NCBI GenBank assembly: GCA_963721805.1 | Contig: CAVRJY010000001.1 | Location: 832,001 to 896,000 of the forward strand | Source of the DNA: Nitrospirota bacterium | GTDB lineage: Bacteria; Nitrospirota; Thermodesulfovibrionia; Thermodesulfovibrionales; JdFR-86 | Length of the DNA stretch: 64,000 nucleotides | Reading direction: 5' to 3' | Shown here: piece after piece, positions 361 to 26,309 of the stretch | Position numbering within the stretch: the stretch's first letter is position 1 | Layout of the letters: each line of letters starts with the position of its first letter | Made by a program: the position numbers and the translations under genes | Notes under the pieces: generated by a model | What the model saw: the letters and a program-made list of their open reading frames with translations, nothing else | Told to the model about the DNA's origin: nothing | The model's database searches: none

Positions 361-408
361 TATTAGAAACGCTTACAATTAACTTTATCTCAAGGAGGAT
401 TCAAGACG

Positions 409-936: not shown

Positions 937-1030
937 GGATTTTTTACGGCCGCAGACGCTGTGGCCCGACGTATGGCATGATCGGGCAGGGGGCCCGCAA
1001 GGGCTCCCCGCTTTGCTTCAGAGGGTGGTT

Positions 1031-1106
1031 GCGCCCATAGCTCAGTTGGATAGAGCATCGGACTACGAATCCGTGTGCGGGGGTTCGAATCCTCCTGGGC
1101 GTACCA
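1031..1106 (+). tRNA. tRNA-Arg(ACG)
   Basis: GCGCCCA acceptor stem, TAGCTCAGTTGGATAGAGC D-arm, CT-ACG-AA anticodon loop, GTTCGAATC, encoded CCA. Confidence 0.95.
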
Positions 1107-1201
1107 CCCATTTTTTTGCCTCCAGCCTCGCCCGCTCCCTCCCGTTTCCCCATTGCAGACAATTAGTTTCCACCTCCCGCGTTTGCTGATATAATCGGGC
1201 C

Positions 1202-4786: not shown

Positions 4787-4813
4787 AAAAGGGGCCGCCT
4801 TTCGGCAGCCCCC
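4785..4813 (-). terminator. Intrinsic terminator between convergent DUF748 and dapA
   Basis: Minus strand GGGGCTGCC-GAAA-GGCGGCCCC followed by a T6 tract. Confidence 0.7.
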
Positions 4814-4880
4814 TTCATGATTAATTGGATAGTGAGCGGTGCGTTGTCACCGCGAATGGGGAGAGGGGCCAGTCGGCCCC

Positions 4881-5759: not shown

Positions 5760-5760
5760 C

Positions 5761-6591: not shown

Positions 6592-6593
6592 GG

Positions 6594-7853: not shown

Positions 7854-7861
7854 AAGTTAGT

Positions 7862-7892
7862 AATTTACCATTGAGGTGTTTGCGTTGTCAAA
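7862..7892 (-). promoter_or_regulatory. Sigma70-type promoter for lysA-dapF-dapA
   Basis: Minus strand TTGACA, ~18 nt spacer, TGG-TAAATT extended -10, 8 nt before the lysA ATG. Confidence 0.55.
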
Positions 7893-7925
7893 AACGCAAA
7901 AAATTCCGGTGCTTGAGGTTGCGTC

Positions 7926-9629: not shown

Positions 9630-9644
9630 CGCGGGGCGGCCCAG

Positions 9645-10562
9645 CTACTTCTTGAGCCCGCCCAGAGCCCTCTTTTCGCCCCAGAGAAGCACTACGGGGC
9701 TTGCCACGAACACGGAGGAGTAAGTGCCGACGATGATGCCCAGGAGGATCGCTAGCGCGAAGTCGTGGATCACCTCGCCGCCGAACAGGAACAGCGAGAG
9801 CGCGCAGAAAAACACGGTCATCGAGACAATTACCGTCCTTGAGAGCACCTCGTTGATGCTCGCGTTGATGATCTCGTTGGTGGGTACCCTGGTGCGGTTT
9901 CGCAGGTTCTCGCGTATCCGGTCGAACACGACGACCGTGTCGGTGAGCGAATAGCCCGCGATAGTCAGCAGCGCGCTTACGAGGATGAGGTTGATCTCCC
10001 TGCCCATGAGATAAAACGCCCCGAGCACCGCCAGCACGTCATGGAAAGTGGCTATCGTGGCCCCTATCCCGAACCAGAACTGGAAGCGGAACGCGATGTA
10101 GATGAGGATGCCGATGACCGAGGCTCCTATGGCGATCAGCGTGTTGCCGCGCAGCCTCTGGCCGACCTTGGGCCCGATCTCGGTCGTCGAATCCACGACC
10201 GGGTGCTGGGCGGAGAACTTGGCGTTGAGCGTCGAGATGATCTTGTCGGAGATGCCGCCGAGCTTGTCCTCGTTCTTCTTGACGCGGATGAGGATTTTGT
10301 TCTCGGTCGGCAGGTCCTGCAGGTCGGCGTCCTTGATGCCCGCGTCCTCTATGGCGACGCGCACGTCGTGCAGCGGGACGTGGGAGTCGAACTTTATCTG
10401 CACCGAGGTGCCCCCGGCGAAGTCTATGCCCAGGTTCGCGTTGCCGAGGGATATCTGCACGACCGCGAAGATCCCTATCAGCGAGAGTATGCCCGAGATC
10501 ACATAGGCGTACCTGCGCTTGCCCATATAGTCGAGGTTGGGTTTCTTTATCAGTTCTATCAT
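9645..10562 (-). CDS. secF: Protein translocase subunit SecF
   Basis: [28 protein letters not shown]. Confidence 0.95.
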
Positions 10563-12172
10563 ATGCTTAGCCTCTTAACCTCTCTGCGCTGGAAGATGAG
10601 ATCGAAGATCGTCTTGGTGCCGACCAGTGCGGTATAAAGATTGATCGCGACGCCGAGGCTCAGCGTGACCGCGAAGCCCTTGATAGGGCCGGTGCCGAAC
10701 TGAAAGAGCACCGCGGCCGTGATGAGCGTCGTCACGTGCGCGTCGAATATCGTCCAGAAGGCCTTGTCGTAGCCTGTGTCCACCGCGGCGCGCGCTGTCT
10801 TGCCCGCGCGGATTTCCTCGCGCATTCGCTCGAACATCAGCACGTTACTGTCGACGGCCATGCCGACGGCGAGTATTATGCCGGCGATGCCGGGCATCGT
10901 GAGCGTGGCGTTAAGCGAGGCCATCGCTCCGAGCAGCAGTATGATGTTCAGCACGAGGGCGAAGTCCGCTATCACCCCGGAGAGCCTGTAGTAGAAGATC
11001 ATGAATACTATGACCATGATCGAGCCGATCAGCCCGGCCATCTTGCCGGCCTGTATCGAGTCGCGCCCGAGCGACGGGCCGACCGTGACGTTCTGGAGCA
11101 TCTTGACCGGGGCCGGCAGAGCGCCTGCCTTCAGCACGATGGCCAGGTCCTTGGCCTCGTCCATCGTGAAGCTGCCGGTGATCTGGGCGCTTCCGCCGGA
11201 GATGCGCTCGCGTATGACCGGGGCCGAATATACGTTGTTGTCTAGGATGATCGCCATGCGGTTGTTGACGTTGGCGGCCGTGACGTCGTCAAATATCTTG
11301 GCGCCGCTCGCGTTAAAAGTGATGGACACGTAGGGCTCGCTGTAGCGCTGGTCGATGCTCACGCGGGCCTCCGAAAGCAGGTCGCCGGTCAGCAGCGCGG
11401 TCTTGTGCAGGAGCAGCGGGACCTTGATGACCGCGCCGGTCTCCTTGTTGGTCACGCGCTCAAAGAGGATCTCGTCGTCCTCGGGGATCTTGCCCTTTAA
11501 CTTTTCAAGCAGCGCGACTTCATCGCCCGGAGCGAGCGAGCGCGGAAGCTCGGCCGCGACCGGGGACTTGTCGTCCACTATCTTGAACTCCAGCAGCGCG
11601 GTCTTGCCGATGATGTCGATGGCGCGCTTGGGGTCCTTGATGCCCGGCAGCTGGATCACGAGCTCGTTGGTGCCCTGGCGCTGTATCGAGGGCTCGGCCA
11701 CGCCGAACTGGTCGATGCGGTTGCGGATAGTCTCGATGGCCTGCTCGGTGGAGTTGTCACGGACGCGGTTGCGCTCGGCCTCGGAGAGCATGTAGTTGCC
11801 GCTGCCCTTGCTCTCGAGCAGCGGAAAGTCGTCCTTGATCAGCTGGTCGATCTCGGGCGTCGCCGGAGTGACGTTTATCGTAAGCCCGCTGACCTTGACG
11901 TCGACGTTGATGTTCTTCTTCTTGGCCGAGTCCTTGATCACCTGCCCAAGGCGCTCGGTCGTGATCTCGACGGCCTTGTCGCCCTCGACCTCGAATACGA
12001 GGTGCAGGCCGCCCTGCAGGTCGAGCCCCAGCGTTATGCCCTTGCTGGGCATCGTGTTTTTCCACCATGAGGGCATGGCGTCGAATACCGGTGTGTTGGG
12101 AAGGAAGAACACCGTGGCCAGCACTATCGTGGCTGCTATGATTATGATGCGCCCTAGTACGCCCTGTTTCAT
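10559..12172 (-). CDS. secD: Protein translocase subunit SecD
   Basis: [27 protein letters not shown]; start taken at MKQGV. Confidence 0.95.
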
Positions 12173-12353
12173 CCACCCCTCCAAAGACAAGGCATCTTAA
12201 CGATGCGGATATGTCATATGCATATTGATATGCATATAGATTAAACCCGGTTATTTTGCACTAAATGCCCCCCATTCGGCAAGTCCATCCTTAAAAGGGC
12301 GGCTCGGGGCGGCTATTGATATTCGGCCGCGATTATTGGACAATAGCGGTGAG

Positions 12354-14327
12354 ATGAACAAAAACCGGCTTATTTTGCACGGGTTGGCCCTGTGCTCCAC
12401 GCTCATGTTCCTGGCGTTTCAGCTCTACGACCCTGCCGTGCTCCGCGAGCAGGTCGAGGCCAAGACGCTGGATCTGCGCCAATACCTCCGCAACCGCATG
12501 ACCAAGCCCGCGCCGCCCGAGGACATCCTTATCGTGACGGTCGACGAGCACAGCATCGCCGAGGTGGGGCGGTGGCCCTGGAGTCGCACAGTGATAGCCG
12601 GCCTGATAAACACGATATCCTCCGGGGCCCCGAAGGCGATCGGCGTGGACATACTGTTCAGCGAGCCAGAGGGCAAGGGGCCGGACGAGGCGCTCGGACG
12701 GGCGATATCGGAGGCCGGAAACGTCGTGCTCGCAACCGGGTTTCTGGTCTTTGCCGATACGGGCGAGCGCATGAAAACGGTCAAGCCCGACTACCTGTGG
12801 GAGCACGCATTCATGGAGGTCAAGGGCACGAAGGATATCCCGTGGAAGCGCTGGGTGCTCAACGCAGACAGCGTGCTCGCGCCGGTCGCGCCGATTGCCT
12901 CGGGGGCGGAGATAGGCTCGGTCTATACACAGCCGGACCTCGACGGGGTGCTGCGCTGGGAGATTCTTGCGCTTCAGTACGACGGGGACTTCTACCCATC
13001 GATGCCGCTTCAGGTCGTGAGGATCGCCAAGGGCCTCAAGCCGCAGGACATGGCCGTGCTTGGCGGCACCGGCATCAAACTCGGCGCCGAGACGATACCC
13101 ACGGACTTAGGTATGCGGATCCTCCTTAACTACCGGGGCGGCGCGGGCAGCTTCCGCTATATCCCGGCCGCCGACCTGATGAAAGGACGCGTCTCGCCAT
13201 CGGTATTCAAGGATAGGATCGTGCTGCTCGGGACCTCGGCGCTCGCTACCTATGACCAGAAGGTGACGCCGCTTTCGGCCAACATGCCGGGGGTCGAGAA
13301 AAACGCCACGGTCATCGACAATATCATCCATCGGAGCTATCTGACCCGCAGCCCCGGCGTGATAGAAATGGTTATCACTGTCCTGACCGCCGTCATACTG
13401 AGCATCATTACCCAGCGCACGAGGGCGCTGGTCGGCGTATCTTTCGCGCTGCTGCTGATCGCGGGATATATCGGGTTCTCGTTTTACATGCTCGAGGCTC
13501 GCGGCGTATGGCTGAACGTTATCTATCCGGTCGGCAACATGGGGCTGATCTTCGTCTCGCAGGGCGCGGCGAGGTTCTTCCTCGAGGAGCTTAAGGCGAG
13601 GCACATCAGGCATATGTTTTCGAGCTACGTCTCTCCGAAGGTCGTCGAGGCCCTGATCGAGAACCCGGAGAAGGCGAAGCTCGGCGGCGACAAGAAGGAA
13701 CTGACGGTGCTGTTCTCCGACGTGGCCGGCTTTACGAGCATATCGGAGAAGCTCGACCCCGCGGAGGTCGTGGCGCTCCTTAACGAGTATTTCAAGTCGA
13801 TGACGGACGTGATATTCCGCTGGGACGGGACGTTTGACAAGATCGTGGGCGACGAGATCATGGCATTCTGGGGCGCGCCGGTTGACCAGCCAGACCATCC
13901 TGAGCGCGCCGTGCGCTGCGCGCTCGACATGCTCAACAAGCTTGAGGTCCTGCGCGAGAAATGGCGCGCCGAGGGCAGGCCGCTCATCCAGATGGGCATA
14001 GGCATCAACACCGGGCCGATGCTGGTTGGAAACATCGGGGCCGAGGACAAGAAGATGGACTATACCGTGATGGGCGACTCGGTCAACGCCGGGGCGCGCG
14101 TCGAGGCGCTCACAAGGTCGTATAACGCCAAGATACTGATCACCGAAGCGACCTACGAGAAGATACGGCCGCAGGTCGAGGCGGGCCACTTCGGCCACAC
14201 TAAGTTTGAGTGCAGGGGAGAGGTCAAGGTTAAGGGGAAGGAGATTTTATTCCAGGTCTATGAAGTCTATGACACGGAAGCCAAATGGGATCACACGTTC
14301 GACGGAACGGGCTCGGATACTAAGTGA
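12354..14327 (+). CDS. CHASE2-domain class III adenylate cyclase
   Basis: GRWPWSR CHASE2 motif, three TMs, FSDVAGFT, DKIVGD, DYTVMGDSVN (Lys/Asp typical of ATP specificity); start could be 12336. Confidence 0.9.
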   Translation: MNKNRLILHGLALCSTLMFLAFQLYDPAVLREQVEAKTLDLRQYLRNRMTKPAPPEDILIVTVDEHSIAEVGRWPWSRTVIAGLINTISSGAPKAIGVDILFSEPEGKGPDEALGRAISEAGNVVLATGFLVFADTGERMKTVKPDYLWEHAFMEVKGTKDIPWKRWVLNADSVLAPVAPIASGAEIGSVYTQPDLDGVLRWEILALQYDGDFYPSMPLQVVRIAKGLKPQDMAVLGGTGIKLGAETIPTDLGMRILLNYRGGAGSFRYIPAADLMKGRVSPSVFKDRIVLLGTSALATYDQKVTPLSANMPGVEKNATVIDNIIHRSYLTRSPGVIEMVITVLTAVILSIITQRTRALVGVSFALLLIAGYIGFSFYMLEARGVWLNVIYPVGNMGLIFVSQGAARFFLEELKARHIRHMFSSYVSPKVVEALIENPEKAKLGGDKKELTVLFSDVAGFTSISEKLDPAEVVALLNEYFKSMTDVIFRWDGTFDKIVGDEIMAFWGAPVDQPDHPERAVRCALDMLNKLEVLREKWRAEGRPLIQMGIGINTGPMLVGNIGAEDKKMDYTVMGDSVNAGARVEALTRSYNAKILITEATYEKIRPQVEAGHFGHTKFECRGEVKVKGKEILFQVYEVYDTEAKWDHTFDGTGSDTK

Positions 14328-14337
14328 TCGATTTTGG

Positions 14338-14460
14338 AAAGCGCGCTAAAGTCGCGTGATACGTTGTCGCGGTTTCAAAGACGCGCCCTCGGAGTACGTC
14401 TCAGTACACCGTCGGGCGGTCTCCTCACCGCTCCTAGTCTGACGCGATTTATCGCGCTTT
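14338..14460 (+). repeat. 123-bp imperfect palindromic repeat, copy 1
   Basis: AAAGCGCG...CGCGCTTT ends; homologous to 22811-22933 and the reverse complement of 25038-25160. Confidence 0.9.
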
Positions 14461-14901
14461 GCGGGGTTAGACGCGGCCCAGCCGCTGGACCCCGCACCCC
14501 AAGGTCAACGGCATTTATTTGAGTAAGCGCTCTGTGCGAAGATTGAGCGGGGCAGGTGGCAGTTTTAATCTTATGCGGGATGCTGTGCTCCCCTGCACTC
14601 TCAAAAGGGCCTGACGGCATGCATGCGCAAATTTGTTCTATCAGGCCATGTTCCGCGAGACGTTTCCATTGATTTTTGAAATGTAACAATCGCGGCGATT
14701 GGAACTTATATGGATAAAGGCTTCGATAGCGGTTTCGCCGCATCAGGCAAGCCCTGCGAGCTATCGCTACAGCTTTATATGGTTGTTTTGGGATACATGG
14801 AACATGAATATAAGATGCAAGTAATGGTAAACTAATCAAACATTTATCAATATCCTCGTGTTTTAAAGCGAGGGATATGACAACATGAAAGGAAAATAAT
14901 C

Positions 14902-15753
14902 ATGAGTCTAGTTAAGTTTAGTGCTTATGCAACTTCTACTCAATATCCTGGCATTGAGAAAATCCCAGCTGATCATATTTTTGTTTGCCCAGGAGATGGT
15001 AGTCATAATTGGAACTGCTTTGGCGGAGGATGCGAAATAATTATAAATAAATCGAGGGAATTAAGGAAATTAGAGAACGGTTCGGGATCGGGAAACGCCC
15101 GGTGGGCCAGCTTGATATATGGCCCTTCTTCCGAGGGAGATCCAAATTTCTACGGCAGCGCGGCTGGTATTAGAAATGTGTATGATGGAGTTTGTCACAA
15201 TGTTGCGAATCGAATTCTAGTGATTACCGGAGAGGGGATAGACGTAAGCGGAGCAGCCGGAAATGAGTTGGTAACATTGATGTACGGAAAATTTGGGTAT
15301 AATATTGAAAAGTTTATTGATAATGTTAGGATTACCGCTAAGCTAGTAAATGAGGAGCAACCAGGGACATTGACTGATCAAGAAATTGAAGACGTTGTAA
15401 ATCGGATTACGCGGGGGGTATCTCCTGATAATGAGTTGGAGATATTGAAGAAGGATTTGGATGAGCATTTTGGTCCGCATCTTTCCCATTTGAGCGACGA
15501 AGAACGGTCAAAGTTTGACAGCATCTACAAAGATTTCCAAGATGATCGTAAGACGGCTTATTATGATGCTGAACCACAAACTGGAACTGGCCTAGAGTTT
15601 CAAAGAAGATTTGCTGATCGGATAGAACCCCATCTGAAAACATGCTTGTTAAAACTCGATGAGTTGCTCGGAAGAGATCGATTTCTAGCGCTTTTTAAGG
15701 GTGTGCCCGAATCTGTTATCGCAGCTGCTAAAGGATTCTTGTTTATGCGATGA
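14902..15753 (+). CDS. Hypothetical protein (AT-rich cargo; possible His...Cys papain-like catalytic pair)
   Basis: 283-aa ORF with SD AAGGA, composition unlike flanks; DHIFV and GVCHNVANRIL motifs. Confidence 0.75.
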   Translation: MSLVKFSAYATSTQYPGIEKIPADHIFVCPGDGSHNWNCFGGGCEIIINKSRELRKLENGSGSGNARWASLIYGPSSEGDPNFYGSAAGIRNVYDGVCHNVANRILVITGEGIDVSGAAGNELVTLMYGKFGYNIEKFIDNVRITAKLVNEEQPGTLTDQEIEDVVNRITRGVSPDNELEILKKDLDEHFGPHLSHLSDEERSKFDSIYKDFQDDRKTAYYDAEPQTGTGLEFQRRFADRIEPHLKTCLLKLDELLGRDRFLALFKGVPESVIAAAKGFLFMR

Positions 15754-15840
15754 AAACGATTAGGTATGCCTCGCACGTTACCGCTCACCTCATTGTCCAC
15801 AACTACCCCGCTTGCTGGTAGAGCTTATCTCTAATTTAAT

Positions 15841-16974
15841 TTACAAACCCAGCGCTACGAACAGCCTGACCGTAACCGGGTTCATGAGCATGAGGGCATC
15901 GGGGGTTAAGGCCACGCGGCCGGCGCGCTCGACTATCATCCCCTCCCTTATAAGGGGGGCGCATGCGGCCGAGAGGTCAAGCCCGTGCTCGTTTTGGAAG
16001 CGAGCGAGTTCAAGCCCCTCCGAGGTGCGCAGGCCGAGCATGACCTCCTCCCGAAGCGCGTCGGCCTCGGATAGCTCGTGGCGTTCGGCCACGGGCTGGA
16101 TGCCCTCTCCGAGCATCCTTACGTAGGCGTCCGTGTCCTCGACGTTCCACCATCGCGCAGTTCCGTCGAAGGAGTGCGCGCCGGGGCCGAGCCCGAGGAA
16201 GCTCCCCCGCCGCCAGTAGTTGAGGTTGTGGCGGCACTCCATGCCCGGCAGGGCGTAGTTCGAGACCTCGTAATGCCCGTACCCCTCGGCCGTGAGCAGC
16301 TCCCTGCCGCGGTGAAACATATCGGTGACGAGGTCCTCAGACGGCATCGCCACGCTCCCGCCCTCTATCGCGTCCCAAAGCGGCGTGCCCTCGGCAGGCG
16401 TAAGCTCATAGGCCGATACGTGCGAGGGCCGGAGTTCGAGCACCCTGCCGAGCGTCCGCTCCCAGTCCCTCATGGCCTGCCCCGGCAGCCCGTACATCAG
16501 GTCGACCGAGAGGTGCAAGCCGTGGTCCTTGATCATCAGCGCGGCGCGGAGCGCGTCCTTTGCGGTATGCAGCCGTCCGAGGCTGCGCAGTTCGGGGTCG
16601 TTGAGCGACTGCACGCCGAGGCTCATGCGCGTTACCCCAGAGCGTTTTAAGATCCCGAGTTTTTCGTCATCGAGAGTGCCGGGGTTGGCCTCGACCGTGA
16701 ACTCACGCGCCTCATGGGTGATCTCCGTGACAATCTCAAGCAGAGAGGAAAGCATAGGGGCGGGAAGCGAGGTGGGCGTGCCGCCGCCTACGTAAACCGT
16801 ATCGGGCGGGCCGGGGGCCAGGAAGCGCGCCTCGCTTCCGAGGGCGTTGAGGTATGCGCGCGCCGGGGCCTCCTCGATCCTGACCGAGTAGAAGTCGCAG
16901 TACGCGCACTTGCCGATGCAGTACGGCACGTGCACGTAGAGCCCCTCGTACCTGCGCCCTTTTATTATTTCCAT
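15841..16974 (-). CDS. hemW: Radical SAM heme chaperone HemW (HemN-like)
   Basis: LYVHVPYCIGKCAYCDF (CxxxCxxC), GGGTPT, YEVSNY, HNLNYW. Confidence 0.88.
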   Translation of the reverse strand: MEIIKGRRYEGLYVHVPYCIGKCAYCDFYSVRIEEAPARAYLNALGSEARFLAPGPPDTVYVGGGTPTSLPAPMLSSLLEIVTEITHEAREFTVEANPGTLDDEKLGILKRSGVTRMSLGVQSLNDPELRSLGRLHTAKDALRAALMIKDHGLHLSVDLMYGLPGQAMRDWERTLGRVLELRPSHVSAYELTPAEGTPLWDAIEGGSVAMPSEDLVTDMFHRGRELLTAEGYGHYEVSNYALPGMECRHNLNYWRRGSFLGLGPGAHSFDGTARWWNVEDTDAYVRMLGEGIQPVAERHELSEADALREEVMLGLRTSEGLELARFQNEHGLDLSAACAPLIREGMIVERAGRVALTPDALMLMNPVTVRLFVALGL

Positions 16975-16994
16975 GGCTACTTTATAATACAATG

Positions 16995-17327
16995 ATGTTG
17001 ACCGGATATAATACCAACGTGCCGCACAAGGGCCGCACCCTGCACGTCCAGACCGAGGACGGGGGGCGGGGCAACCCGGTCATAACCACCCTTTTATACG
17101 AGCGCGGGGCTATACTGGATTCGGTGCGCGCGGCCTATGCCGACCTCCTGATCGACGAGGACTGGAAGGAAAAGGTCGTAGGTATGATGCGCGAGCAGCA
17201 CAAGCGGCTGATACAGGCCGTGATGTCGGGCAGCTATGACGAGGCCCCCTCCGGGGAGGCCGCGCCGGACGCGGATCAGGCAGGGCAAGAGGACATAGAC
17301 TCAGTCGTTGCCGCATACATAATCTGA
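16995..17327 (+). CDS. Conserved hypothetical protein upstream of ftsE
   Basis: GYNTNV...HVQTEDGG...MMREQHK pattern; start 16992 or 16995. Confidence 0.7.
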   Translation: MLTGYNTNVPHKGRTLHVQTEDGGRGNPVITTLLYERGAILDSVRAAYADLLIDEDWKEKVVGMMREQHKRLIQAVMSGSYDEAPSGEAAPDADQAGQEDIDSVVAAYII

Positions 17328-17346
17328 GCGCGGAGGTGCCTGAAGC

Positions 17347-18006
17347 TTGATAAAGTTCGTGGACGTGACAAAGACCTTCGAGAGCTCCACGATCATCAGG
17401 AAGGCGAACTTCGAGATCGGGCGCGGGGAGATGGTATTCATCTCGGGGCCCAGCGGCTCGGGGAAGACCACCCTGCTGAAGATGATCTTCATGGAGGAGC
17501 GGCCGGACGAGGGCCAGATCCTCGTCGACGACAAGGACCTGACCAACCTGCCCCCGTCGCACATCGCCCACCTCAGGCGCATGGTCGGCGTCGTGTTCCA
17601 GGACTTCAGGCTCCTGCCGATGAGCGTATACGACAACGTGGCGCTGACGCTGCGCATACGCGGGATGAGCGAACGCGCGCTAAGGCCGATAGTCAACGAC
17701 ACGCTGAAGCTCGCGGGCCTCAGACACAAGGCCGAGAGCTTCGCCGAATCGCTCTCGGGCGGGGAGCAGCAGCGGGTATCCATCGCGCGCGCCATTGTGG
17801 GCGAGCCGCAGGTCCTGCTCGCCGACGAACCGACGGGCAACCTCGACCCTGACACCGCGGCCGGGATAAGGAAGCTGTTTAGGGAGATCAACATGCACGG
17901 CACCACGGTGGTGTTCGCCACGCACTCGCGCGAGCTGTTTCGCGACCTCGGCAACCGCGTCCTGAGGCTCGAGGACGGCGTGATAATGCAGGAGGCCGGG
18001 CTTTGA
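17347..18006 (+). CDS. ftsE: Cell division ATP-binding protein FtsE
   Basis: GPSGSGKT, GVVFQDFRLL, LSGGEQQRV; TTG start after GGAGG; precedes ftsX. Confidence 0.9.
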   Translation: MIKFVDVTKTFESSTIIRKANFEIGRGEMVFISGPSGSGKTTLLKMIFMEERPDEGQILVDDKDLTNLPPSHIAHLRRMVGVVFQDFRLLPMSVYDNVALTLRIRGMSERALRPIVNDTLKLAGLRHKAESFAESLSGGEQQRVSIARAIVGEPQVLLADEPTGNLDPDTAAGIRKLFREINMHGTTVVFATHSRELFRDLGNRVLRLEDGVIMQEAGL

Positions 18007-18875
18007 ACGCATACCAGATCCGCACTGCCGTAAACGGCATAATGCGCGAGAAGTGGATAAACGCCATAAGCGTCCTGGCTATCGCCACCGGGCTGCTTCT
18101 GGCCGCGATGGCGTACCTCGCGGTCTATAACGTCAAGCTCGCGGCCGACCGCCTGCCCGAGCGGTTCTCCGTCACGGTGTTTTTGAGCGACACGCTCACC
18201 GGGGCCCAGGGCCGCGACCTGGCAAACCAGGTCAGCCGCATCGAGGGCGTAAAGCAGGTCACTTACATATCGCGCGATGATGCCCTCGCGGAACTGAAGC
18301 GCACCATGGCCGACGCAGATACGATACTCGGCGGCCTCGCAGAAAACCCGCTGCCCGCGTCCCTGGACGTCAGGGTCAACGAGGACTCCGTGACGGCCGA
18401 GGCGGTGCGCACGGTCGCGGACGCGATAAAGAGGATCAGCGGCGTCTCGGACGTCGAATACGGCGAGAAGCTGCTGGGCGTGATACAGAAGGTGAGGTAT
18501 TACGCCGGCACGTTCGCCTCGGCGGTGATGACGATAATCGTGGCCGGGATGCTGTTCGTCTGCTACAGCACGGTGAAGATCCTGCTGTACCGCAAGCGCG
18601 AGGAGGTCGATACGCTCATGGTGCTCGGGGCCACCAAGTGGTTCATCCGGGGGCCGTTCATCATGGAGGGCGCGATCGTCGGGCTTTTGGGCGGCCTGAT
18701 CGCGGCCGGCGGGCTCATGGCCTTCAAGGTCGTGGTGTTCGACCAGATGATGTCGACGATGCCGCTGCTGGGCGAGTTGAGCGCGCCGCCCGAGATCCTG
18801 CTGGCGCTGCCCCTTGGCGGCCTGCTGGTTGGCGCGCTCGGGGCGCTTATGGCCGTCGGGGCCATAAAATATTAG
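18003..18875 (+). CDS. ftsX: Cell division permease FtsX
   Basis: ENPLPAS, LGATKWFIRGPFIMEG, four TMs. Confidence 0.9.
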   Translation: MNAYQIRTAVNGIMREKWINAISVLAIATGLLLAAMAYLAVYNVKLAADRLPERFSVTVFLSDTLTGAQGRDLANQVSRIEGVKQVTYISRDDALAELKRTMADADTILGGLAENPLPASLDVRVNEDSVTAEAVRTVADAIKRISGVSDVEYGEKLLGVIQKVRYYAGTFASAVMTIIVAGMLFVCYSTVKILLYRKREEVDTLMVLGATKWFIRGPFIMEGAIVGLLGGLIAAGGLMAFKVVVFDQMMSTMPLLGELSAPPEILLALPLGGLLVGALGALMAVGAIKY

Positions 18876-18882
18876 GCCGCCG

Positions 18883-20046
18883 ATGAGGCCCATCGCCGGT
18901 CTCGCCTCAGCGGTGGCGGTAATATGCGTTTTGTGCGTCTTTTGCCCGCCCGCCGCCCTGGCGGCCGGCGCCGGTGCCAACGATACCGAGCGCGAGTACC
19001 AGGACATGAAGCGCAAGATCGAGAGCAACGAGCAGCAGCTGAAGATCTACAGGGGCATCGAGTCCTCGACGCTCTCCGAGATAGAGAAGACCAACCGCGA
19101 GCTCTCGGCCGTCTCCAAGGACCTGCGGTCTTACCGGGCCGGGCTCGCGGACACGCAAAACAAGATAGCGGGCGTGAAGGCCGACATCGACGCCCTCGGC
19201 GGCAAGCTCGAAAAGCGCAAGGGCTGGCTCCGCATGAAGGTGCGCGCGATGAACCGCTACGGCAGGTACGCCAACCTGCTGCTGAGCCTCGAGGGCTCCT
19301 CCGACATGTCGCAGTTCATAAGGCGCTGGCGGTATCTGAGCGTCCTGGCCTCGCTCGAGAACAAGGCCATAGACGGCTACAAGCGCGACCTGTCCACGCT
19401 CCACAGCCGGCAGGCCGAGCTGGATTCCCTTTACCTGCGCATGCAGTCCGACGAGCACCGGATATCCGCGGCCGAACGCCTCGTGGCCGAGAAGAAGGCC
19501 GAGAAAGAGACCGAGCTTGCGAACGTTAGGAAGAAGAAGGCCTCGCAGGAGCAGGTGCTGAGCGAGATGCGCGAGGCCCAGCAGCGGCTGTTTGACATGC
19601 TCAAGAAGGCCGAGCGCACCACCCCCCAGTATACCGGCAAGGGCTTCGGCGCGCGGAAGGGCTCGCTGCAGTGGCCTGTCAGGGGGACGGTGGCGGCCGG
19701 ATACGGCACCGGCAACGACCCCCGCGTCAATACCCCGGTGTTTAGAAACGGCATATACATCACGACCGCCGAGGGCACGGTGGTGTACTCCGTCTCCGGC
19801 GGCAGGGTCGTCTTCGCGGACTACTTCAAGGGCTTCGGCCAGCTCGTGATCGTGGACCACGGCGAGGGCTACCATTCGCTGTACGGCGACCTGTCCGAGA
19901 TTTTTTTGAAGACAGGAGATATAATAGAAGGACGCACCAAAATCGGCGTGGTAGGCGAGTCGGGCATGTTCAGCAAGCCCTCTCTCTATTTCGAGATCAG
20001 GTATAAGGGCAAGCCCCTCGACCCGCTGCAGTGGCTCGGTGGATAG
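18883..20046 (+). CDS. envC: Murein hydrolase activator EnvC family
   Basis: Signal peptide, coiled coil, degenerate M23 domain (LYFEIR) following ftsEX. Confidence 0.85.
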   Translation: MRPIAGLASAVAVICVLCVFCPPAALAAGAGANDTEREYQDMKRKIESNEQQLKIYRGIESSTLSEIEKTNRELSAVSKDLRSYRAGLADTQNKIAGVKADIDALGGKLEKRKGWLRMKVRAMNRYGRYANLLLSLEGSSDMSQFIRRWRYLSVLASLENKAIDGYKRDLSTLHSRQAELDSLYLRMQSDEHRISAAERLVAEKKAEKETELANVRKKKASQEQVLSEMREAQQRLFDMLKKAERTTPQYTGKGFGARKGSLQWPVRGTVAAGYGTGNDPRVNTPVFRNGIYITTAEGTVVYSVSGGRVVFADYFKGFGQLVIVDHGEGYHSLYGDLSEIFLKTGDIIEGRTKIGVVGESGMFSKPSLYFEIRYKGKPLDPLQWLGG

Positions 20047-20111
20047 TGCGCGGGCGCACGGGCTTATTTTCTATCAATAACTTGTGAATCAGCCGGAGGA
20101 ACTCAGACTAA

Positions 20112-21479
20112 ATGTTTAAGAAGACCAGATACTGGGCGCTGCCATTCGTAGTCGCCTTGTTCGCCGCGGCCATCCTGATGGGCCGCCTCGCGGCCGCGGA
20201 CGTAAGGGCCGGGGACACCACTTACGAACGGCTCAAGCTCTTCACCGAGGTCCTCTCGGTCGTGCAGCAGAACTACGTCGAGCCCGTCGACGACAAGACC
20301 CTCATCTATGACGCCATAAACGGCATGCTCCGCTCCCTCGACCCGCACTCGGCCTTCATGACCCCGGAGTCCTACAAGGAGATGCAGGTCGACACGAAGG
20401 GCGAGTTCGGCGGCTTAGGCATCCAGATCTCGATCAAAAACAGCATCCTGACCGTAATCGCGCCGATCGACGACACGCCGGCCGCGCGCGCCGGGATCAT
20501 GGCCGGAGACCGCATAGTGAAGATCAACGGCGAGTACACGGACAAGCTCACGCTGCAGGACGCGGTCGAGAAGATGCGCGGCAAGCCCGGCACCCCCGTG
20601 ACGCTCTCGATCATGCGCGAGGGCTTCAAGGAGCTGCGCGACTACACGATAGTGCGCGACATAATAGTCATAAAGAGCGTCAAGAGCAGGATGCTCGACA
20701 ATAACATCGGCTACATCAAGCTCAGCGCGTTCAACGAAAAGAGCGCCGGGGAGGCAGAGCATGCCCTCAAGGAACTCTCGGACAAGAAGATGACCGCGTT
20801 TATCCTGGATTTGAGGAACAACCCCGGAGGGCTGCTCAAGAGCGCCATCGACATCTCGGACATGTTCCTGCCCGCAAACACGCTGGTCGTCTTCACGAAG
20901 TCCAGAAGCGGCGAGCGCGTCGAGTACAAGACGCGGGCCGGCTCGCAGATACCGCAGATCCCGATGGTCGTGCTCGTAAACCCTGGCAGCGCCAGCGCCT
21001 CGGAGATCGTGGCCGGCGCGCTCAAGGACTGGAAGCGCGCGGTGATAGTGGGCGAGACGACCTTCGGCAAGGGCTCGGTCCAGAGCGTCATCCCGCTCAG
21101 CGACGGAGCCGCGCTGCGCCTGACGACGTCGAAATACTACACGCCCAACGGCGAGTCGATCCAGAACACCGGGATCACGCCCGACATAGTCGTTAAGCTC
21201 AAGAGTTCGGGCGAGAACAAGCCGCACCCGATAATGCGCGAGAAGGACTTGACGGGCCACCTCGATAACGAGCAGGTCGACGGCAAGGTGCAGAAGCCCG
21301 AGGTCAAGACGCCGGAGAAGGGCGCCGCGCCCGAGGAGGAAGAGGAGGCCGTGATGGCCCCGAAGGACGACAAGGACGACAACCAGCTCCAGCGCGCCAT
21401 CGACCTGCTGAAGACCTGGGAGATATTCAAGAAGCTCCCGGACGTCACGGCAGGCGCGGCCCCGGCGGCTGCAAAGTAA
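20112..21479 (+). CDS. ctpA: Carboxy-terminal processing protease (S41)
   Basis: LDPHS, PDZ GGLGI, DLRNNPGG, SASASEI, TFGKGSVQ. Confidence 0.93.
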   Translation: MFKKTRYWALPFVVALFAAAILMGRLAAADVRAGDTTYERLKLFTEVLSVVQQNYVEPVDDKTLIYDAINGMLRSLDPHSAFMTPESYKEMQVDTKGEFGGLGIQISIKNSILTVIAPIDDTPAARAGIMAGDRIVKINGEYTDKLTLQDAVEKMRGKPGTPVTLSIMREGFKELRDYTIVRDIIVIKSVKSRMLDNNIGYIKLSAFNEKSAGEAEHALKELSDKKMTAFILDLRNNPGGLLKSAIDISDMFLPANTLVVFTKSRSGERVEYKTRAGSQIPQIPMVVLVNPGSASASEIVAGALKDWKRAVIVGETTFGKGSVQSVIPLSDGAALRLTTSKYYTPNGESIQNTGITPDIVVKLKSSGENKPHPIMREKDLTGHLDNEQVDGKVQKPEVKTPEKGAAPEEEEEAVMAPKDDKDDNQLQRAIDLLKTWEIFKKLPDVTAGAAPAAAK

Positions 21480-21481
21480 TA

Positions 21482-22156
21482 TTGCCGCCAAGACGGCTCG
21501 TAATTGACATAGAAACCAGCGGCGCCCTGCTTGAGGACCTCGACGAGGGACTCAGGCAGGGCCTGCTGAAAAAGGCCGAGACCCCGGAGGACATAGACAA
21601 GATCCGCCGCGAGACCGGCCTGAACCCCGTCACAGGCGAGGTCATCGCCATCGGCACCTTCGACCCCGACCTGCGGCGCGGCACCGTCCTTTACCAGGCC
21701 CCCGGAGAGCTCCCGCTTACGACCGAGGAGGAGGGCATGCGCTACGTCTCGGGCTCCGAGGCCGAGATCCTGCGCGCTTTCTGGGACGAGGTCAGGGGCG
21801 TAAAGACCGTGGTGACCTTCAACGGCCGCGGCTTCGACGGGCCGTTTCTGATCATCCGCTCCGCGGTGCACCGCATCAAGCCCACGCGCGACCTCATGCC
21901 CAACCGGTACTCCGACGACCACGTAGACCTCTTCGACCGGCTCTCGTTTTTCAGCGCGACGCAGCGCCGGTTCGGGCTCGACATCTGGTGCCGGGCGCTG
22001 GGCATAGCTAGCCCCAAGGACGCGGGCATATGCGGGGCCGAGGTCGGCGACGCCTTCCGCGCCGGGCGTCACCTCGACATAGCCCGCTACTGCGGCCGCG
22101 ACATCCTCGCCACGGCCGAGCTTTACGCAGTCTGGGAGAAATTCATCAAATCGTAA
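21482..22156 (+). CDS. Stand-alone PolB-like 3'-5' exonuclease (DEDDy, RNase H fold)
   Basis: VIDIET, TFNGRGFD, HVDL, YCGRD exonuclease motifs; TTG start. Confidence 0.8.
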   Translation: MPPRRLVIDIETSGALLEDLDEGLRQGLLKKAETPEDIDKIRRETGLNPVTGEVIAIGTFDPDLRRGTVLYQAPGELPLTTEEEGMRYVSGSEAEILRAFWDEVRGVKTVVTFNGRGFDGPFLIIRSAVHRIKPTRDLMPNRYSDDHVDLFDRLSFFSATQRRFGLDIWCRALGIASPKDAGICGAEVGDAFRAGRHLDIARYCGRDILATAELYAVWEKFIKS

Positions 22157-22185
22157 GCTCCGCCACGCCGTGATATAATCTTTCC

Positions 22186-22779
22186 ATGAATGAGTTTCTG
22201 CACGCGCTGCCCAACACGTTCATCCCGATCTTCGTAGCCATGGACCCGTTTATCATAGTGCCGGTCTTCGTCTCGCTGACCGAGGGGATTAGCGCGAAGT
22301 CCCGTGACCACGTGGTGAACACCTCGGCCGTCACCGCCCTTACGGTGAGCCTGATCTTCACGATGGGCGGAAGCGCGCTTTTCAGGGTGATGGGCATCAC
22401 GGTATTCGACTTCAAGGTCGCGGGGGGGCTAGTGCTGCTCGTGATCGCGATACTCGACCTCGTGAGCACGGGGGCGAAGGCCGCGACCCGAAACTCTGAG
22501 CACGCCGGGGTGGTGCCGATAGGGGTGCCGCTGATCGTCGGGCCCGCGGTGCTCACGACGATCATAGTGCTGATGGACAACCAGGGGCTTGTCCTGACCG
22601 TGACCTCGCTCGTGCTCAATATCCTTATCGTATGGATCGCGATGAAGAGCGCGAAGGCTATCGTGAGGTTCATGGGCATAAACAGCATGAAGGCTATTTC
22701 AAAAATCATGGCCATTATGCTGGCGTCGCTCGCGGTGATGATGATTCGATTGGGCATCGCTGGCATGACCGGGCACTAG
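22186..22779 (+). CDS. MarC family membrane protein
   Basis: FVAMDPF, VAGGLVL, VVPIGVPLIVGPA. Confidence 0.9.
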   Translation: MNEFLHALPNTFIPIFVAMDPFIIVPVFVSLTEGISAKSRDHVVNTSAVTALTVSLIFTMGGSALFRVMGITVFDFKVAGGLVLLVIAILDLVSTGAKAATRNSEHAGVVPIGVPLIVGPAVLTTIIVLMDNQGLVLTVTSLVLNILIVWIAMKSAKAIVRFMGINSMKAISKIMAIMLASLAVMMIRLGIAGMTGH

Positions 22780-22810
22780 GTGGAAGTCGTCCATTATCGA
22801 GAGCCATTGG

Positions 22811-22933
22811 AAAGCCGCGCTAAATTGGCTGATACGTTGTCGCGGCTTCGGAATCCGTCCTCGATGTACGCCCAAGTACACCGTCGGACGTCTTCCTCGC
22901 CGCTCCTAGTCTGAGTCTAATTTATCGCGCTTT
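22811..22933 (+). repeat. 123-bp imperfect palindromic repeat, copy 2 (followed by a small hairpin at 22944-22973)
   Basis: Shares GATACGTTGTC, GTAC..GTACACC, CCTAGTCTGA and CGCGCTTT with the other copies. Confidence 0.9.
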
Positions 22934-23021
22934 GATGTGGCCGATGCCTGATCGTGCGAGCGGTCAACGGCATTGATAGGAGCGGGCCAGCTACGACTCC
23001 ACTTTGCTTTATCAGTGAACC

Positions 23022-23786
23022 TTATTGATTAAATTCGGTTTGTTCCAATGCTAAGCGCTTTTCAATTTCAATAAGTGCTTCCGACAAAGATAAATTATAA
23101 AATCCATCAGTTTCTTTGAGCGCTGTTAACATTAAGTCGCATGCCACTAGTAAATATAGTGACCTGTCTTCCTGATAAGGGAAAAAAGTAAATACGACAG
23201 GTTTGTTTGTTCCGCTGAGAATTAGATGTTCAATAGTCTTAGGTTTAACATGCACCACTTCAGAAAGGATACGATAAACGTGTTGATACCAATCATTCAT
23301 CTCAACCTTTTTAGCCAGCCATTCTGTCGAAATCCCTTGTTCTTTAGTTTCTTTAGCCACTGATAGTAGCATTGGCTTTAACTCAAATTCTTCATCTGGA
23401 AATAAATCAGGATGATCCTTCATAACATTCCCCATCTTTTTTTGACATGCCTCATGAGACTTCAAATATTTGTCAGCAAATGTTTCATCGTTTAGATTTG
23501 CTTTCAATAAAATTATGATTTCGAATAAATGCCTTAATAGAATTTGTATCTCAGCATTAAGTTGATACTCACCCAACTTGTAGAGACCTTTAAAAGTATT
23601 CATTGCTTTAATAAGAAAACCTAACGAATAAATATTGCGTGGATTAAGGTTGTCAGAATTGATTGCGGATCCGACTGCGGTAATGGCTTTCTCGCATATT
23701 TCGAAGAGTTTCTTGTATAAGTCTATGAGTTCGGGACTAATATCCCCATAGCCATATTTACTGTCAATCGAGACATCATTATCCAT
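23022..23786 (-). CDS. DUF5677-like (HEPN-related) hypothetical protein, AT-rich
   Basis: ILLRHLFE and YQHVYRILSEVVH patterns; very AT-rich. Confidence 0.65.
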   Translation of the reverse strand: MDNDVSIDSKYGYGDISPELIDLYKKLFEICEKAITAVGSAINSDNLNPRNIYSLGFLIKAMNTFKGLYKLGEYQLNAEIQILLRHLFEIIILLKANLNDETFADKYLKSHEACQKKMGNVMKDHPDLFPDEEFELKPMLLSVAKETKEQGISTEWLAKKVEMNDWYQHVYRILSEVVHVKPKTIEHLILSGTNKPVVFTFFPYQEDRSLYLLVACDLMLTALKETDGFYNLSLSEALIEIEKRLALEQTEFNQ

Positions 23787-23967
23787 GATCTATTATAGGT
23801 TATTGCGTGCAACAATGTTCCGCTAATAGCCGCCTCAGGCAAGCCCGGCGAAGCGTTCCGAAGTATTTATCGGGTAATGGATTGCCCGCAATCGGATGTT
23901 CCGGGGTCACGGACCCTATTCTTTAAGAAGGGGGCCAGTCGGCACCGCGGTCGTGGTATAATTGCCC

Positions 23968-24264
23968 ATGGCCAGGTCACTTAAAGAGATAAAAAGCGCC
24001 ATAGTGCGGCATAGGGCCGAACTCAGGAGCGTATACAAGATCAAGGACATCGCGCTCTTCGGCTCATACGCGCGCGGCGAGCAGAAAAAAAACAGCGACA
24101 TGGACCTGCTCGCGGACTTCACCGGTCCGATAGGTCTCATAGAATTGGTGGGGGCCGAGCAGTACCTGAGCAAAATCCTCAAGGCGAAGGTCGACCTTAT
24201 CCCGAGGCGCGACGTGCGGCCGGAACTCAGGGCAGGAATACTTAAAGACTCCGTTTCGCTATGA
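23968..24264 (+). CDS. Minimal nucleotidyltransferase antitoxin (MntA type)
   Basis: FGSYARGEQKKNSDMD (GSx10DxD), KVDL. Confidence 0.9.
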   Translation: MARSLKEIKSAIVRHRAELRSVYKIKDIALFGSYARGEQKKNSDMDLLADFTGPIGLIELVGAEQYLSKILKAKVDLIPRRDVRPELRAGILKDSVSL

Positions 24265-24608
24265 ACCGCGACCACGGCCTGTTTATCAAAGATATCCTCG
24301 ATAACATGGAGCGTGCCGAAGCTTTCATCAGCGGCATGACCTACAGGGAATTCTCAAAAGATATAAAGACCGCATACGCAGTAGTGAGATGCCTTGAGAT
24401 AATCGGCGAGGCCGTAAAGAACATTCCCCAGCCGGTCAGAAAACGATACCCCGAAATCCCGTGGAAAGAGATGGCCGGGATGCGGGACAAGGTGATCCAT
24501 TTTTATTTCGGAGTGAAGTTCAAGACCGTTTGGACTACCGCCAAAAAGGACATCCCCAAGCTTAAGCCGCTCATATTGAAGATCAAAGAAGACCTGTCCG
24601 AAGTCTAA
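24261..24608 (+). CDS. HepT/DUF86 HEPN RNase toxin
   Basis: LEIIGEA, IPW, RDKVIHFY (Rx4HxY); ATGA overlap with the MNT gene. Confidence 0.92.
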   Translation: MNRDHGLFIKDILDNMERAEAFISGMTYREFSKDIKTAYAVVRCLEIIGEAVKNIPQPVRKRYPEIPWKEMAGMRDKVIHFYFGVKFKTVWTTAKKDIPKLKPLILKIKEDLSEV

Positions 24609-24813
24609 GACTAACTAAAGTTAATCGTAAGTTAATAGAAAACGCACGGGGATCAAATTATTTATCAACTCCGGTTTATATATAAACATTAGTTCCATGG
24701 ACTTTTCGGATTCGATGTGATTCAATACGGGATGATGTACATATGCTTATTTTTGAGAGTGTGTAAATCGCTGAGCGGCGGCTCGGAAAATGTCTTTGAG
24801 CACCCGGCTGGCG

Positions 24814-24999
24814 CATCCGAACAAACGGCCGGATTTGGGGGTAAAACATCCGAACATCCGAACACGGATAAAACAAAAAAGATAGGCAAATCACCATCTT
24901 ATGATCTGTTTTGCGCCCAACATCCGAACAAAAAAGGACAAAAACGCGCGCGCACGCGCGCGGAATGCATAACTATACCTAAGCGAGCGCATCCGAACA
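24814..24999 (+). repeat. Cluster of five CATCCGAACA direct repeats
   Basis: Exact copies at 24814, 24847, 24855 (overlapping the previous), 24921 and 24990. Confidence 0.85.
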
Positions 25000-25037
25000 C
25001 GCCTTTGACCGCTCGCACGATTAGGCATGTGAAACTT

Positions 25038-25160
25038 AAAGCGCGAGAAATCAGCGTCAGACTAGGAACGGCGAGGAAAACGTCCGAGGGTGTACTGAGA
25101 TGTACATTGAGGACGGATTTCCGAGTCGTGACAACGTATCACGCGATTTGGCGCGACTTT
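25038..25160 (-). repeat. 123-bp imperfect palindromic repeat, copy 3 (inverted; small hairpin at 24999-25028)
   Basis: Reverse complement aligns end-to-end with copies 1 and 2. Confidence 0.9.
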
Positions 25161-25221
25161 CTGCCCTCTTACTATTATTTACGGAATTTGATAGTATATG
25201 GGTGTAGATAGGGGGTAGACC

Positions 25222-25863
25222 GTGATCGGTGCCGAGCTGGACATAACCTCCAACGACCTCAACGTGCTCATGAACGCCGTGAGCCAGGCCCAGAAGTCGC
25301 TGAAGGGCGCGGTGCAGGATGCCGCGGTCACTGCGTCCGGTTCCGTCACCGGGGCGGCCGCCTCAAAGCCGCCACCCACTGCCGCCACGACCATCGGCAG
25401 CACTCAGGAAGAACGCGCTATAGCGCTCGAGATACAACAACTCCAGCAGCGCGAGAAGGCCGTCATCGCGCACGAGCAGGCCCACATAGCCGTCGGTGGC
25501 CAGTACGCCGGCCCGGCCAGCTATTCATACACCCTCGGCCCGGATAAGAAGGACTACATCTCCGGCGGCGAGGTCTCGATAGACGTCTCGGACGAGAGCA
25601 CCCCTCAAAAGACTATCCCGAAGATGCAGCAGGTCCGCGCGGCCGCGCTCGCCCCGATGGACCCCTCAGCGCAGGATATGTCGGTGGCCGCCACCGCGAC
25701 GCAGAAAGAGGCTGATGCGCAGCGGGAGGTCTACGCCGAGCAGATGGAGTCCGCGCAGCAGGCCGAGGCCGGTCAAAAGGGGAATTCGATCCTATCCGGC
25801 ATCTACGGCAGTGCGTCCCCGGGTTCAGCGCCGGCCGGGGCCTCGGTTTCGGTCTACGCTTAG
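25222..25863 (+). CDS. SprA-related / putative metalloprotease CJM1_0395 family
   Basis: VIAHEQAH, GPD..Y..GGEVSID, AALAPMDPSAQD. Confidence 0.8.
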   Translation: MIGAELDITSNDLNVLMNAVSQAQKSLKGAVQDAAVTASGSVTGAAASKPPPTAATTIGSTQEERAIALEIQQLQQREKAVIAHEQAHIAVGGQYAGPASYSYTLGPDKKDYISGGEVSIDVSDESTPQKTIPKMQQVRAAALAPMDPSAQDMSVAATATQKEADAQREVYAEQMESAQQAEAGQKGNSILSGIYGSASPGSAPAGASVSVYA

Positions 25864-25873
25864 GCCCCGCTGA

Positions 25874-26209
25874 TCACACTATGCCCGCGCCGCCTTCGAG
25901 GTATTCCTTCAGCTGGTCTATGGGCCTGGGGAGCCCGGCCACCTTGTATGCGACGAGCGGCTCAATGAACTTTTCGGCCAGGCAGTCCTTGGGCTCGTGG
26001 ATGTTCCGGCAGACGTGGCCCAGGATCGGGAAGAAGTCGTATTTCATGTAGTAGTCCCTGAGGAACCTGATGATCTCCATCATGTCCGGCTTTAGCTCTT
26101 CGATGCCCGCCCGCTCGGCCAGGGCGCATGCGACCTTCTCGTTCCATTCGGCCGGGTCGATCAGGTATCCCTCGTTGTCGATGCGTATCTCCTGCTGCGC
26201 CTGCGCCAT
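25874..26209 (-). CDS. TusE/DsrC-fold protein lacking the C-terminal cysteines
   Basis: DNEGYL.DP..WN, FLRDYY, KVAGLPRP; SD GAGGAGG before MAQAQ. Confidence 0.8.
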   Translation of the reverse strand: MAQAQQEIRIDNEGYLIDPAEWNEKVACALAERAGIEELKPDMMEIIRFLRDYYMKYDFFPILGHVCRNIHEPKDCLAEKFIEPLVAYKVAGLPRPIDQLKEYLEGGAGIV

Positions 26210-26309
26210 GTCGTCCTCCTCTGAGCCCGATGGTATCGCTATGCTCAAGAATTATCACAGAACGCCGGGGCTGTCAATCGGCAGGGGGCCGCTGCATGCG
26301 CGCTGCGGT

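Follow-up and report, generated by a model that had tools for sequence, protein, structure and literature searches.

The window analysed here, a 64,000-nucleotide stretch of the genome of a Nitrospirota bacterium (assembly GCA_963721805.1, contig CAVRJY010000001.1, positions 832,001 to 896,000 of the forward strand), contains three copies of a 123-bp hairpin element, referred to here as the rod, at the borders of two AT-rich stretches (at about 14500-16000 and 23000-25000; islands 1 and 2). Each rod is the outer part of a larger directional arm, which is read here from its rod to its tail. The positions and lengths of the three copies, first proposed in a sequence-only reading of the window, are correct, and both islands are real. 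The features of the locus are the following, numbered from the first letter of the window.

14338..14460 (+): rod of arm 1, 123 bp, starting 10 nt past the stop codon of the CHASE2/cyclase gene 12336-14327
14461..14523 (+): inner part of arm 1, with a G-rich second hairpin (14461-14495), the tail GGTCAACGGC (14503-14512) and a degenerate iteron-like ATTTATTTGAG
14524..15840 (no strand): cargo of island 1, GC about 0.43-0.49, with an open reading frame (ORF; 14902-15753) without a Pfam match
22811..22933 (+): rod of arm 2, 123 bp, starting 31 nt past the stop codon of the MarC-family gene 22186-22779
22942..22991 (+): inner part of arm 2, with a second hairpin that includes the tail GGTCAACGGC (22962-22971), followed by about 20 nt in common with contig C9
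22992..24609 (no strand): variable cargo of island 2, with genes for a DUF5677 protein (23022-23786, -), an MNT-type nucleotidyltransferase (23962-24264, +) and a HepT ribonuclease (24261-24608, +)
24610..25000 (-, read inward from arm 3): module X, about 390 bp, non-coding, with five ATCCGAACA iterons (counted by eye), an AT-rich palindrome and a terminator of a GC hairpin and a T-run (24945-24962)
24997..25030 (-): second hairpin of arm 3, including the tail GGTCAAAGGC (25001-25010)
25038..25160 (-): rod of arm 3, 123 bp, its outer end 61 nt ahead of the start codon of the SprA-related gene 25222-25863

All three copies fold as single, long, imperfect rods; the z-scores for arms 1, 2 and 3 are -5.7, -5.7 and -3.8, which are equalled by none of 200 shuffled sequences. 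The ends AAAG..CGCG/CGCGCTTT and the apex GTAC-N6-GTAC are present, as are the segments of compensatory change named in the sequence-only reading and, after each copy, the tail GGTCAA(C/A)GGC. In copies 2 and 3 this tail is part of the second hairpin, as had been noted, and makes up its 3' half, whereas copy 1 has a separate stem, rich in G, as its second hairpin. The profile search with nhmmer gives three matches in the window, in agreement with the earlier statement that it holds no other copy. The nucleotidyltransferase and the HepT ribonuclease of island 2 are a toxin-antitoxin pair. At the far border of island 1 no second arm is found.

The family is much larger than the three copies of the window had suggested. 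The genome (2.78 Mb, nine contigs referred to as C1 to C9, GC 0.60, 94% complete; the nearest protein cluster of the window in the Atlas is mostly from Nitrospirota) contains about 236 non-overlapping matches, as found by iterated nhmmer searches, distributed over C1 (135), C2 (37), C4 (32), C5 (26), C6 (3) and C9 (3). Full-length rods of 118-128 bp make up 159 of the 236 matches, and their median pairwise identity is 0.78. The rod ends read AAAGCGCG...CGCGCTTT, and terminal inverted repeats are present, as in a classical MITE (miniature inverted-repeat transposable element). Within this genome the rod has become a module of a directional arm, in which a weak stretch rich in T comes first and the rod, a variable second hairpin (of a G-run type or a AATCGTGCGAGC type), the GGTCAAMGGC tail (present in 129 of the 159 full-length copies) and one iteron-like 9-mer with ATGATTNGA-like bases follow each other. 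The rod itself is followed by TTT and then by G-rich sequence, such that no GC stem and U-run of the intrinsic terminator type is found there. The unpaired internal motifs had been described as invariant, and this holds for GATAC, GTAC and GTCTGA in an alignment of 40 copies from this genome, whereas GTTGTC and CCTAGTC vary (for example TGCGTC and CCTTGTC).

The fold of the rod is kept by compensatory change, both in the copies of this genome and in copies from other genomes. A covariance model was built from 40 copies. In 40 copies of this genome, 95.7% of the cells pair, as compared with 87.1% in shuffles, and double changes are seen in 14 of the 28 pairs. For 20 copies from other genomes, aligned by fitting to this model, 93.5% of the cells pair, as compared with 75.8% when shuffled and 38-53% when the partner is slid, and both sides change in 20 of the 28 pairs. 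The unpaired GATAC...GTC and CCTTGTCTG motifs persist in these copies. The proposal that the structure is under selection is therefore formally supported as far as covariation is concerned; the folded species (RNA, single-stranded DNA or cruciform) is not told apart by the wobble pairs, since G:U occurs 128 times and A:C 167 times, which gives no clear strand.

Of 151 genomes of the order, 16 have full-length rods according to the covariance model, and so do 21 of 151 from the phylum (the genome under study is included in both); the copy counts are based on at most 23 scored candidates per genome. In the family referred to as f22, all 11 sampled genomes are rod-positive. When BLAST is used with one copy, no match is obtained in 10 other genomes of the same family as the genome under study, whereas the covariance model detects rods in 3 of these 10, so BLAST is too blunt for this comparison. 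Scans with exact patterns give three singleton loci each in genome contigs and in metagenome contigs; three of these six weakly match the nhmmer profile, and of them the covariance model confirms L095 and L097 and not L094. In another family, f4 (loci L119-L136 and L143), the rod is the core of a palindromic element of about 180 bp and sits within 30-bp inverted ends TAGAACCTRTCTCAAAAT, with 26-136 per genome. These ends also form mini-palindromes without a rod, and once they flank 1.7 kb with an ORF of 332 amino acids. This ORF, being single-copy and without a Pfam match, is ruled out as a transposase. No rods are found beside the orthologues of the flanking genes of the window in other genera (0 of 17 loci), which means that copies have been gained or lost; an empty-site comparison in these genera meets synteny that is not kept. 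No Rfam family matches, as the search gives nothing over the whole window at the gathering threshold and nothing on the arms in 22700-25300 at E-values up to 10. No description of the rod family is found among the listed matches in the literature on Nitrospirota repeats, and of the motif strings only the 9-mer occurs in papers, which are unrelated ones among the matches listed. The rod is an old structured repeat that is conserved with covarying stems across the phylum, and it is the core of a MITE-like and REPIN-like family present in many genomes of this Nitrospirota-like phylum.

The sequence-only reading had placed the copies at junctions of core genes and foreign-looking DNA, and this association is genome-wide and directional, as seen for the arms, for the islands and for the orientation of pairs. 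The GC content is core-like (0.62-0.63) on the rod side and falls to about 0.50 on the tail side, over a distance of more than 1 kb. Windows of 500 bp in which GC is below 0.5 adjoin 90 of 186 arms on the tail side and 1 of 186 on the rod side, with 6.8% of the windows genome-wide as the background. Rods lie against core-gene ends, with their tails towards AT-rich accessory DNA. When the AT-rich islands of the genome are delimited as at least 600 bp of GC below 0.5 (n = 154, 8.8% of the genome), an inward-tail arm lies within 400 bp of a border in 77 of the 154, where about 9.7 are expected on random placement, and 26 of the 154 have inward-tail arms at both borders; arms facing outward are seen at just 6 island borders. 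Neighbouring arms within 3 kb have their tails inward in 54 cases, outward in 7 and in the same direction in 39. Copies scattered without a link to cargo are therefore not what is found. The slots between two inverted, tail-inward arms span 0.1-6 kb, and there are also empty units of about 310-350 bp, in which the tails of two arms nearly touch. Within a pair, the arms resemble each other no more than random arms do (median 0.805 versus 0.789, p 0.18), and their second-hairpin types do not match.

The position of the arms with respect to genes is also regular. For 124 of 188 arms, the rod comes after the stop codon of a gene directed towards it, at a median gap of 15 nt; another 51 arms lie ahead of a start codon, at a median gap of 53 nt, and the other 13 have no gene nearby. 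Module X, a non-coding sequence of about 400 bp, occurs in 51 copies genome-wide, 44 of them directly behind a tail, and contains five ATCCGAACA iterons in the same direction, an AT-rich palindrome and a CGCGCGCG hairpin with a T-run; the intrinsic-terminator-like site is found inside this module only and not at the rod. Exactly one of the two arms carries module X in 33 of 65 inverted pairs, and both do in none of the 65. Arms with module X face gene starts (26 versus 12), and the other arms face stops (112 versus 26). In tandem-gene contexts the polarity of module X agrees with transcription in 15 cases versus 3, and the pairs without this module are mostly between converging genes (17 of 32, or 17 of 26 when both flanking genes are within 400 nt). 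A slot that adjoins a gene start carries module X on that side. No promoter towards the downstream gene is detected in this module by a consensus scan.

The cargo of the slots is diverse, as seen from a scan of 139 ORFs of at least 75 amino acids from 57 pairs, which gives HepT/MNT, MazE/PemK, ParE, Phd, Gp49 with HTH, MmeI-type and other restriction-modification proteins, Abi, KAP NTPase, HEPN, HNH and PLD proteins, together with many ORFs without a Pfam match. What two inverted, tail-inward arms bracket is unrelated from slot to slot and includes toxin-antitoxin, restriction-modification and Abi genes, as well as genes without a Pfam match. Recurrence of cargo at high identity between slots is seen for two insertion sequence (IS) families and a non-coding module only.

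The comparison with contig C9 (13.7 kb; L118, 1-13697), which is collinear with window positions 12383-26281 at 80-85% identity, shows how such a slot can differ between two related segments. All three arms are retained in place in C9, and their inner stems, as well as the second hairpin of two of them, are switched to other subfamily types of the genome. The cargo of island 1 is retained at about 80% identity. In island 2 the similarity stops at about 22991, where the inner part of arm 2 ends, and the cargo 22992-24609 is replaced in C9 by a DUF4019 gene and two ORFs without a Pfam match. Beyond it, module X (24610-25000) is kept far better than the adjoining arms, as judged by eye; the mean column identity of 88% is that of the whole alignment with C9, in which the mismatches lie, by eye, mostly outside the module.

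Several other contigs also match each other. Parts of C1 are matched by C3 (92%), by C7 (95%) and by C8 (9.3 kb at 93% and 2.3 kb at 80%), and it seems that fragments from another strain or species, or else large duplications, are included in the assembly. At its beginning, C4 matches its own reverse over 18.7 kb (32-18743) at 82% identity, owing either to an inverted repeat of very large size that has diverged or to a fault of the assembly. Two stretches (1.6 and 3.2 kb) that are 99.9% identical between C1:685218-690133 and C2:622971-628091 may be an rRNA operon or a recent duplication. Among the sequencing runs listed none is of RNA, and one DNA run, which contains 24% of the words, gave short low-depth contigs with repeat joints and no usable structural variant.

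The sequence-only reading had suggested that the rod could be a folded substrate of a recombinase or transposase, either of the HUH type or like attC, or else a structured RNA. With regard to the HUH type, the sole Y1 transposases (PF01797) of the genome are those of six identical copies of an IS200 element (601 bp; L067:1028-1459, L040:1356-1787, L078:243-674, L079:730-1161 and two more). This element has its own GCCCCGTGGCTTGCCACGGGG end hairpins, which are unrelated to the rod, and its transposase is therefore ruled out as the cognate enzyme. No transposase gene of the REP-associated tyrosine transposase (RAYT) type flanked by rods is found in the genome, and there is no Y1 gene in the relatives G002 and G006, each with 16 or more rods; three genomes of family f4 have two to three divergent Y1 genes each. 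These data speak against the HUH suggestion. The attC suggestion is not supported either, as the arms are in inverted pairs rather than in direct arrays and no integron integrase reaches the family cut-off. An IS481-like element with a 344-amino-acid rve transposase is present in 10 copies (nine identical, one 99.7%; L031:815-1849 and nine more), which have TGTAAAGGTTACGC ends and a duplication of about 7 bp. The ten copies have arrays of a 12-bp palindrome, GGAACYRGTTCC, next to their insertion points; this palindrome is a further repeat family in the vicinity of the arms. The IS481-like element is ruled out as the parent of the arms by its ends. All ten IS481-like copies lie within about 1.2 kb of an arm, as do all six IS200 copies, which are in AT-rich cargo. 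No parent IS with the same ends as the arms is present among the cargo ORFs of the 57 pairs. No signs of target duplication are seen in 55 pairs (k = 3-5, no offset above controls), long flank repeats are found in none of 56 pairs (maximum 8 nt, versus 9 in controls), and a 16-nt flank repeat is seen at 1 of 79 solo arms. The observation made in the sequence-only reading is thus confirmed, and its interpretation is partly supported. Elsewhere, the window holds two cobalamin riboswitches (51878-52017 and 60959-61154, -) and two tRNA genes (271-360 and 1031-1103, +).

What can be said most safely is that the rod belongs to a structured repeat of high abundance and old age, and that its arms mark the limits of slots for accessory genes in this genome. 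The reading that we tentatively prefer, with a little less than an even chance of being correct, is that the arms are resident structured borders of cargo slots, acting as docking sites with exchange of cargo. In such a mechanism cargo would enter and leave on the tail side of arms that stay in place, and the exchange would be catalysed by a trans-acting recombinase that reads the tail and the iterons, or would occur by homologous exchange among the many arms. The fold of the rod might then be kept for a protein of the host or of the element, or for shielding of the neighbouring core gene at the RNA level. Several points weigh against these docking borders. There are 106 arms that are not in an inverted pair and 77 of the 154 islands that have no arm. 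The replacement of cargo comes from one slot comparison, with C9, which may be a paralogous segment rather than another strain, and no empty and filled alleles of one and the same site are seen. The gene distances are derived from crude gene calls, made from ORFs and the GC content at third codon positions. At 18 loci from other genomes no consistent AT-rich side is seen, such that a role in slots may be particular to this lineage. The arms have no linked enzyme: in this genome, which is 94% complete, the recombinase genes (seven tyrosine, one serine) are located away from them (positions compared by eye), no IS110 transposase is found, and the best match to the integron integrase TIGR02249 in the genome has 68.8 bits, versus the cut-off of 265. 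A more elaborate version, which we consider rather unlikely, is a dispersed integron-like capture platform without an array. It would consist of at least about 120 fixed arms at core-gene ends and at least about 60 modular slots, with defence and addiction cassettes exchanged by a putative recombinase that reads the folded rod, the tail and the iterons, and with a promoter-like or insulator-like module X added where the slot is upstream of a core gene.

The readings of the arms are not mutually exclusive, and three others have to be weighed. It is also conceivable, at a low probability, that the arms serve as long terminal inverted repeats for a non-autonomous family of the mobile insertion cassette type, in which arm, cargo and arm move as a whole, mobilised in trans by a transposase that is lost, unrecognised or unassembled, and in which the empty units are the MITE form. 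The bracketing of cargo by inverted arms would be explained in this way, as would the multiple iterons at one end only, as in asymmetric transposon ends (presumably similar to those of Tn7 and Mu). The 30-bp inverted ends around the f4 rods, one unit of which carries 1.7 kb between them, and the gain or loss of copies at the 17 orthologous loci also agree with such a transposon. However, the pairs lack target duplications and long flank repeats, and paired arms do not resemble each other more than random arms. Moreover, no two slots have common high-identity cargo except for the IS copies, the cargo of C9 is replaced between retained arms, and both active IS families have unrelated ends. An RNA-level function is comparably improbable: the rod would be a stable hairpin in the 3' untranslated region of the upstream, or the 5' untranslated region of the downstream, core gene, which stalls ribosomes, stops or processes transcripts and so insulates core genes, and the link with islands would be due to selection for insulators. 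The median distance of 15 nt between stop codon and rod is suggestive in this respect, since a passage of PMC12306157, citing an earlier study, describes ribosome stalling and lowered translation for repetitive extragenic palindromic (REP) sequences within 15 nt of the stop codon. The choice of arm type follows the direction of transcription, module X contains an intrinsic-terminator-like hairpin, and covariation and unpaired motifs are conserved across the phylum, all of which would suit an RNA. Against an RNA, the wobble pairs give no strand signal, and in 139 of 159 copies the better fold is that of the strand opposite to the gene upstream; moreover, the element occurs in both orientations with respect to genes (124 versus 51), and there is no U-tract after the rod.

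It is very unlikely, in our estimate, that the rod is a selfish palindrome without host function, with compensatory changes that arise from templated correction and gene conversion and with copies that survive where insertions are tolerated, at gene ends and beside foreign DNA. Between C9 and the window, orthologous arms differ in entire blocks of stem that agree with other subfamilies, a pattern that points to conversion and not to point changes, and nearly all pairs are Watson-Crick pairs, as expected of a DNA palindrome. On the other hand, the asymmetric internal loops (GATAC...GTC opposite CCTNGTCTGA) are uncorrected and are kept in genomes of other families, and the one-sidedness of the AT-rich DNA (1 versus 90 of 186), together with the rule for arms with module X, is hard to obtain from tolerance alone.

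If the arms are indeed docking borders, about half of the foreign-looking islands of this genome would be organised by one repeated structured element, which would be a new means by which defence and toxin-antitoxin genes are kept and turned over in a small genome, with the neighbouring core genes unharmed. The rod on its own is an uncatalogued 120-nt structure with conserved loops and with many copies across the phylum, which makes it a clear target for finding a binding protein, and the arms are a practical marker of accessory-gene slots in metagenome-assembled genomes of this group.

Among the known systems, the rods can be compared with REPINs, REP doublets that form hairpins and are associated with RAYT transposases (PMC3116915, PMC3337134). 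Both are dispersed, extragenic hairpin repeats of about 100 bp, built of two inverted halves, that are present in hundreds of copies (236 matches here), are long-lived in a lineage and have their fold kept. Unlike in the REPIN/RAYT system, where the repeats flank a Y1 RAYT gene that is usually single-copy, there is no RAYT, and the rod, which folds as a rod, is part of a directional arm with an added hairpin, a tail and an iteron, tied to cargo slots. REP sequences with a GTAG or CGTC tag at one end (PMC3733652) also differ, as the rod ends read AAAGCGCG...CGCGCTTT. REP sequences are further described as targets of insertion sequences (PMC1525189), and this is in line with the presence of other mobile DNA near the arms (all 10 IS481-like and all 6 IS200 copies); here, in contrast, the insertions are in cargo or beside GGAACYRGTTCC arrays and not in the rod. 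The hairpins of the rod are also unlike IS200/IS605 ends, as they are not common to the subterminal hairpins of the IS200 copies. Mobile insertion cassettes, in which passenger genes lie between IS-type or Tn3-type inverted repeats (PMC4337579), share with the slots the transposase-less passenger genes between inverted repeats. They differ in that the arms are about 170 bp long and structured, in that neither a duplication nor a parent element is found, and in that cargo is replaced between retained arms.

The MITEs of the ERIC/IRU and Correia/NEMIS type are imperfect palindromes of 100-150 bp, which are intergenic, close to gene ends, probably transcribed and present in both orientations. The rod resembles these as an imperfect palindrome near gene ends in both orientations, and differs in being without a target duplication, in being phylum-wide rather than restricted to a genus or family, and in being one-sided towards AT-rich islands. 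The attC sites of integrons, such as the repeats of about 123 bp of the chromosomal integrons of Vibrio, are conserved in structure rather than in sequence and flank small, AT-richer cassettes that are rich in toxin-antitoxin genes. Unlike these, the rods are in inverted pairs over several contigs, with no direct array and no integron integrase, and on the rod side the DNA between arms of the same direction lacks AT-richness (1 of 186), unlike in a cassette array. The similarity to attC is nevertheless seen in the length of the rod, in its imperfect palindrome with structure conserved over sequence, and in the AT-richer, toxin-antitoxin-rich DNA that it flanks. The GGTCAAC/GTTGACC of the tail, when compared by eye, fits the familiar RYYYAAC/GTTRRRY core site at just 6 of 7 positions, and this at the cargo end only.

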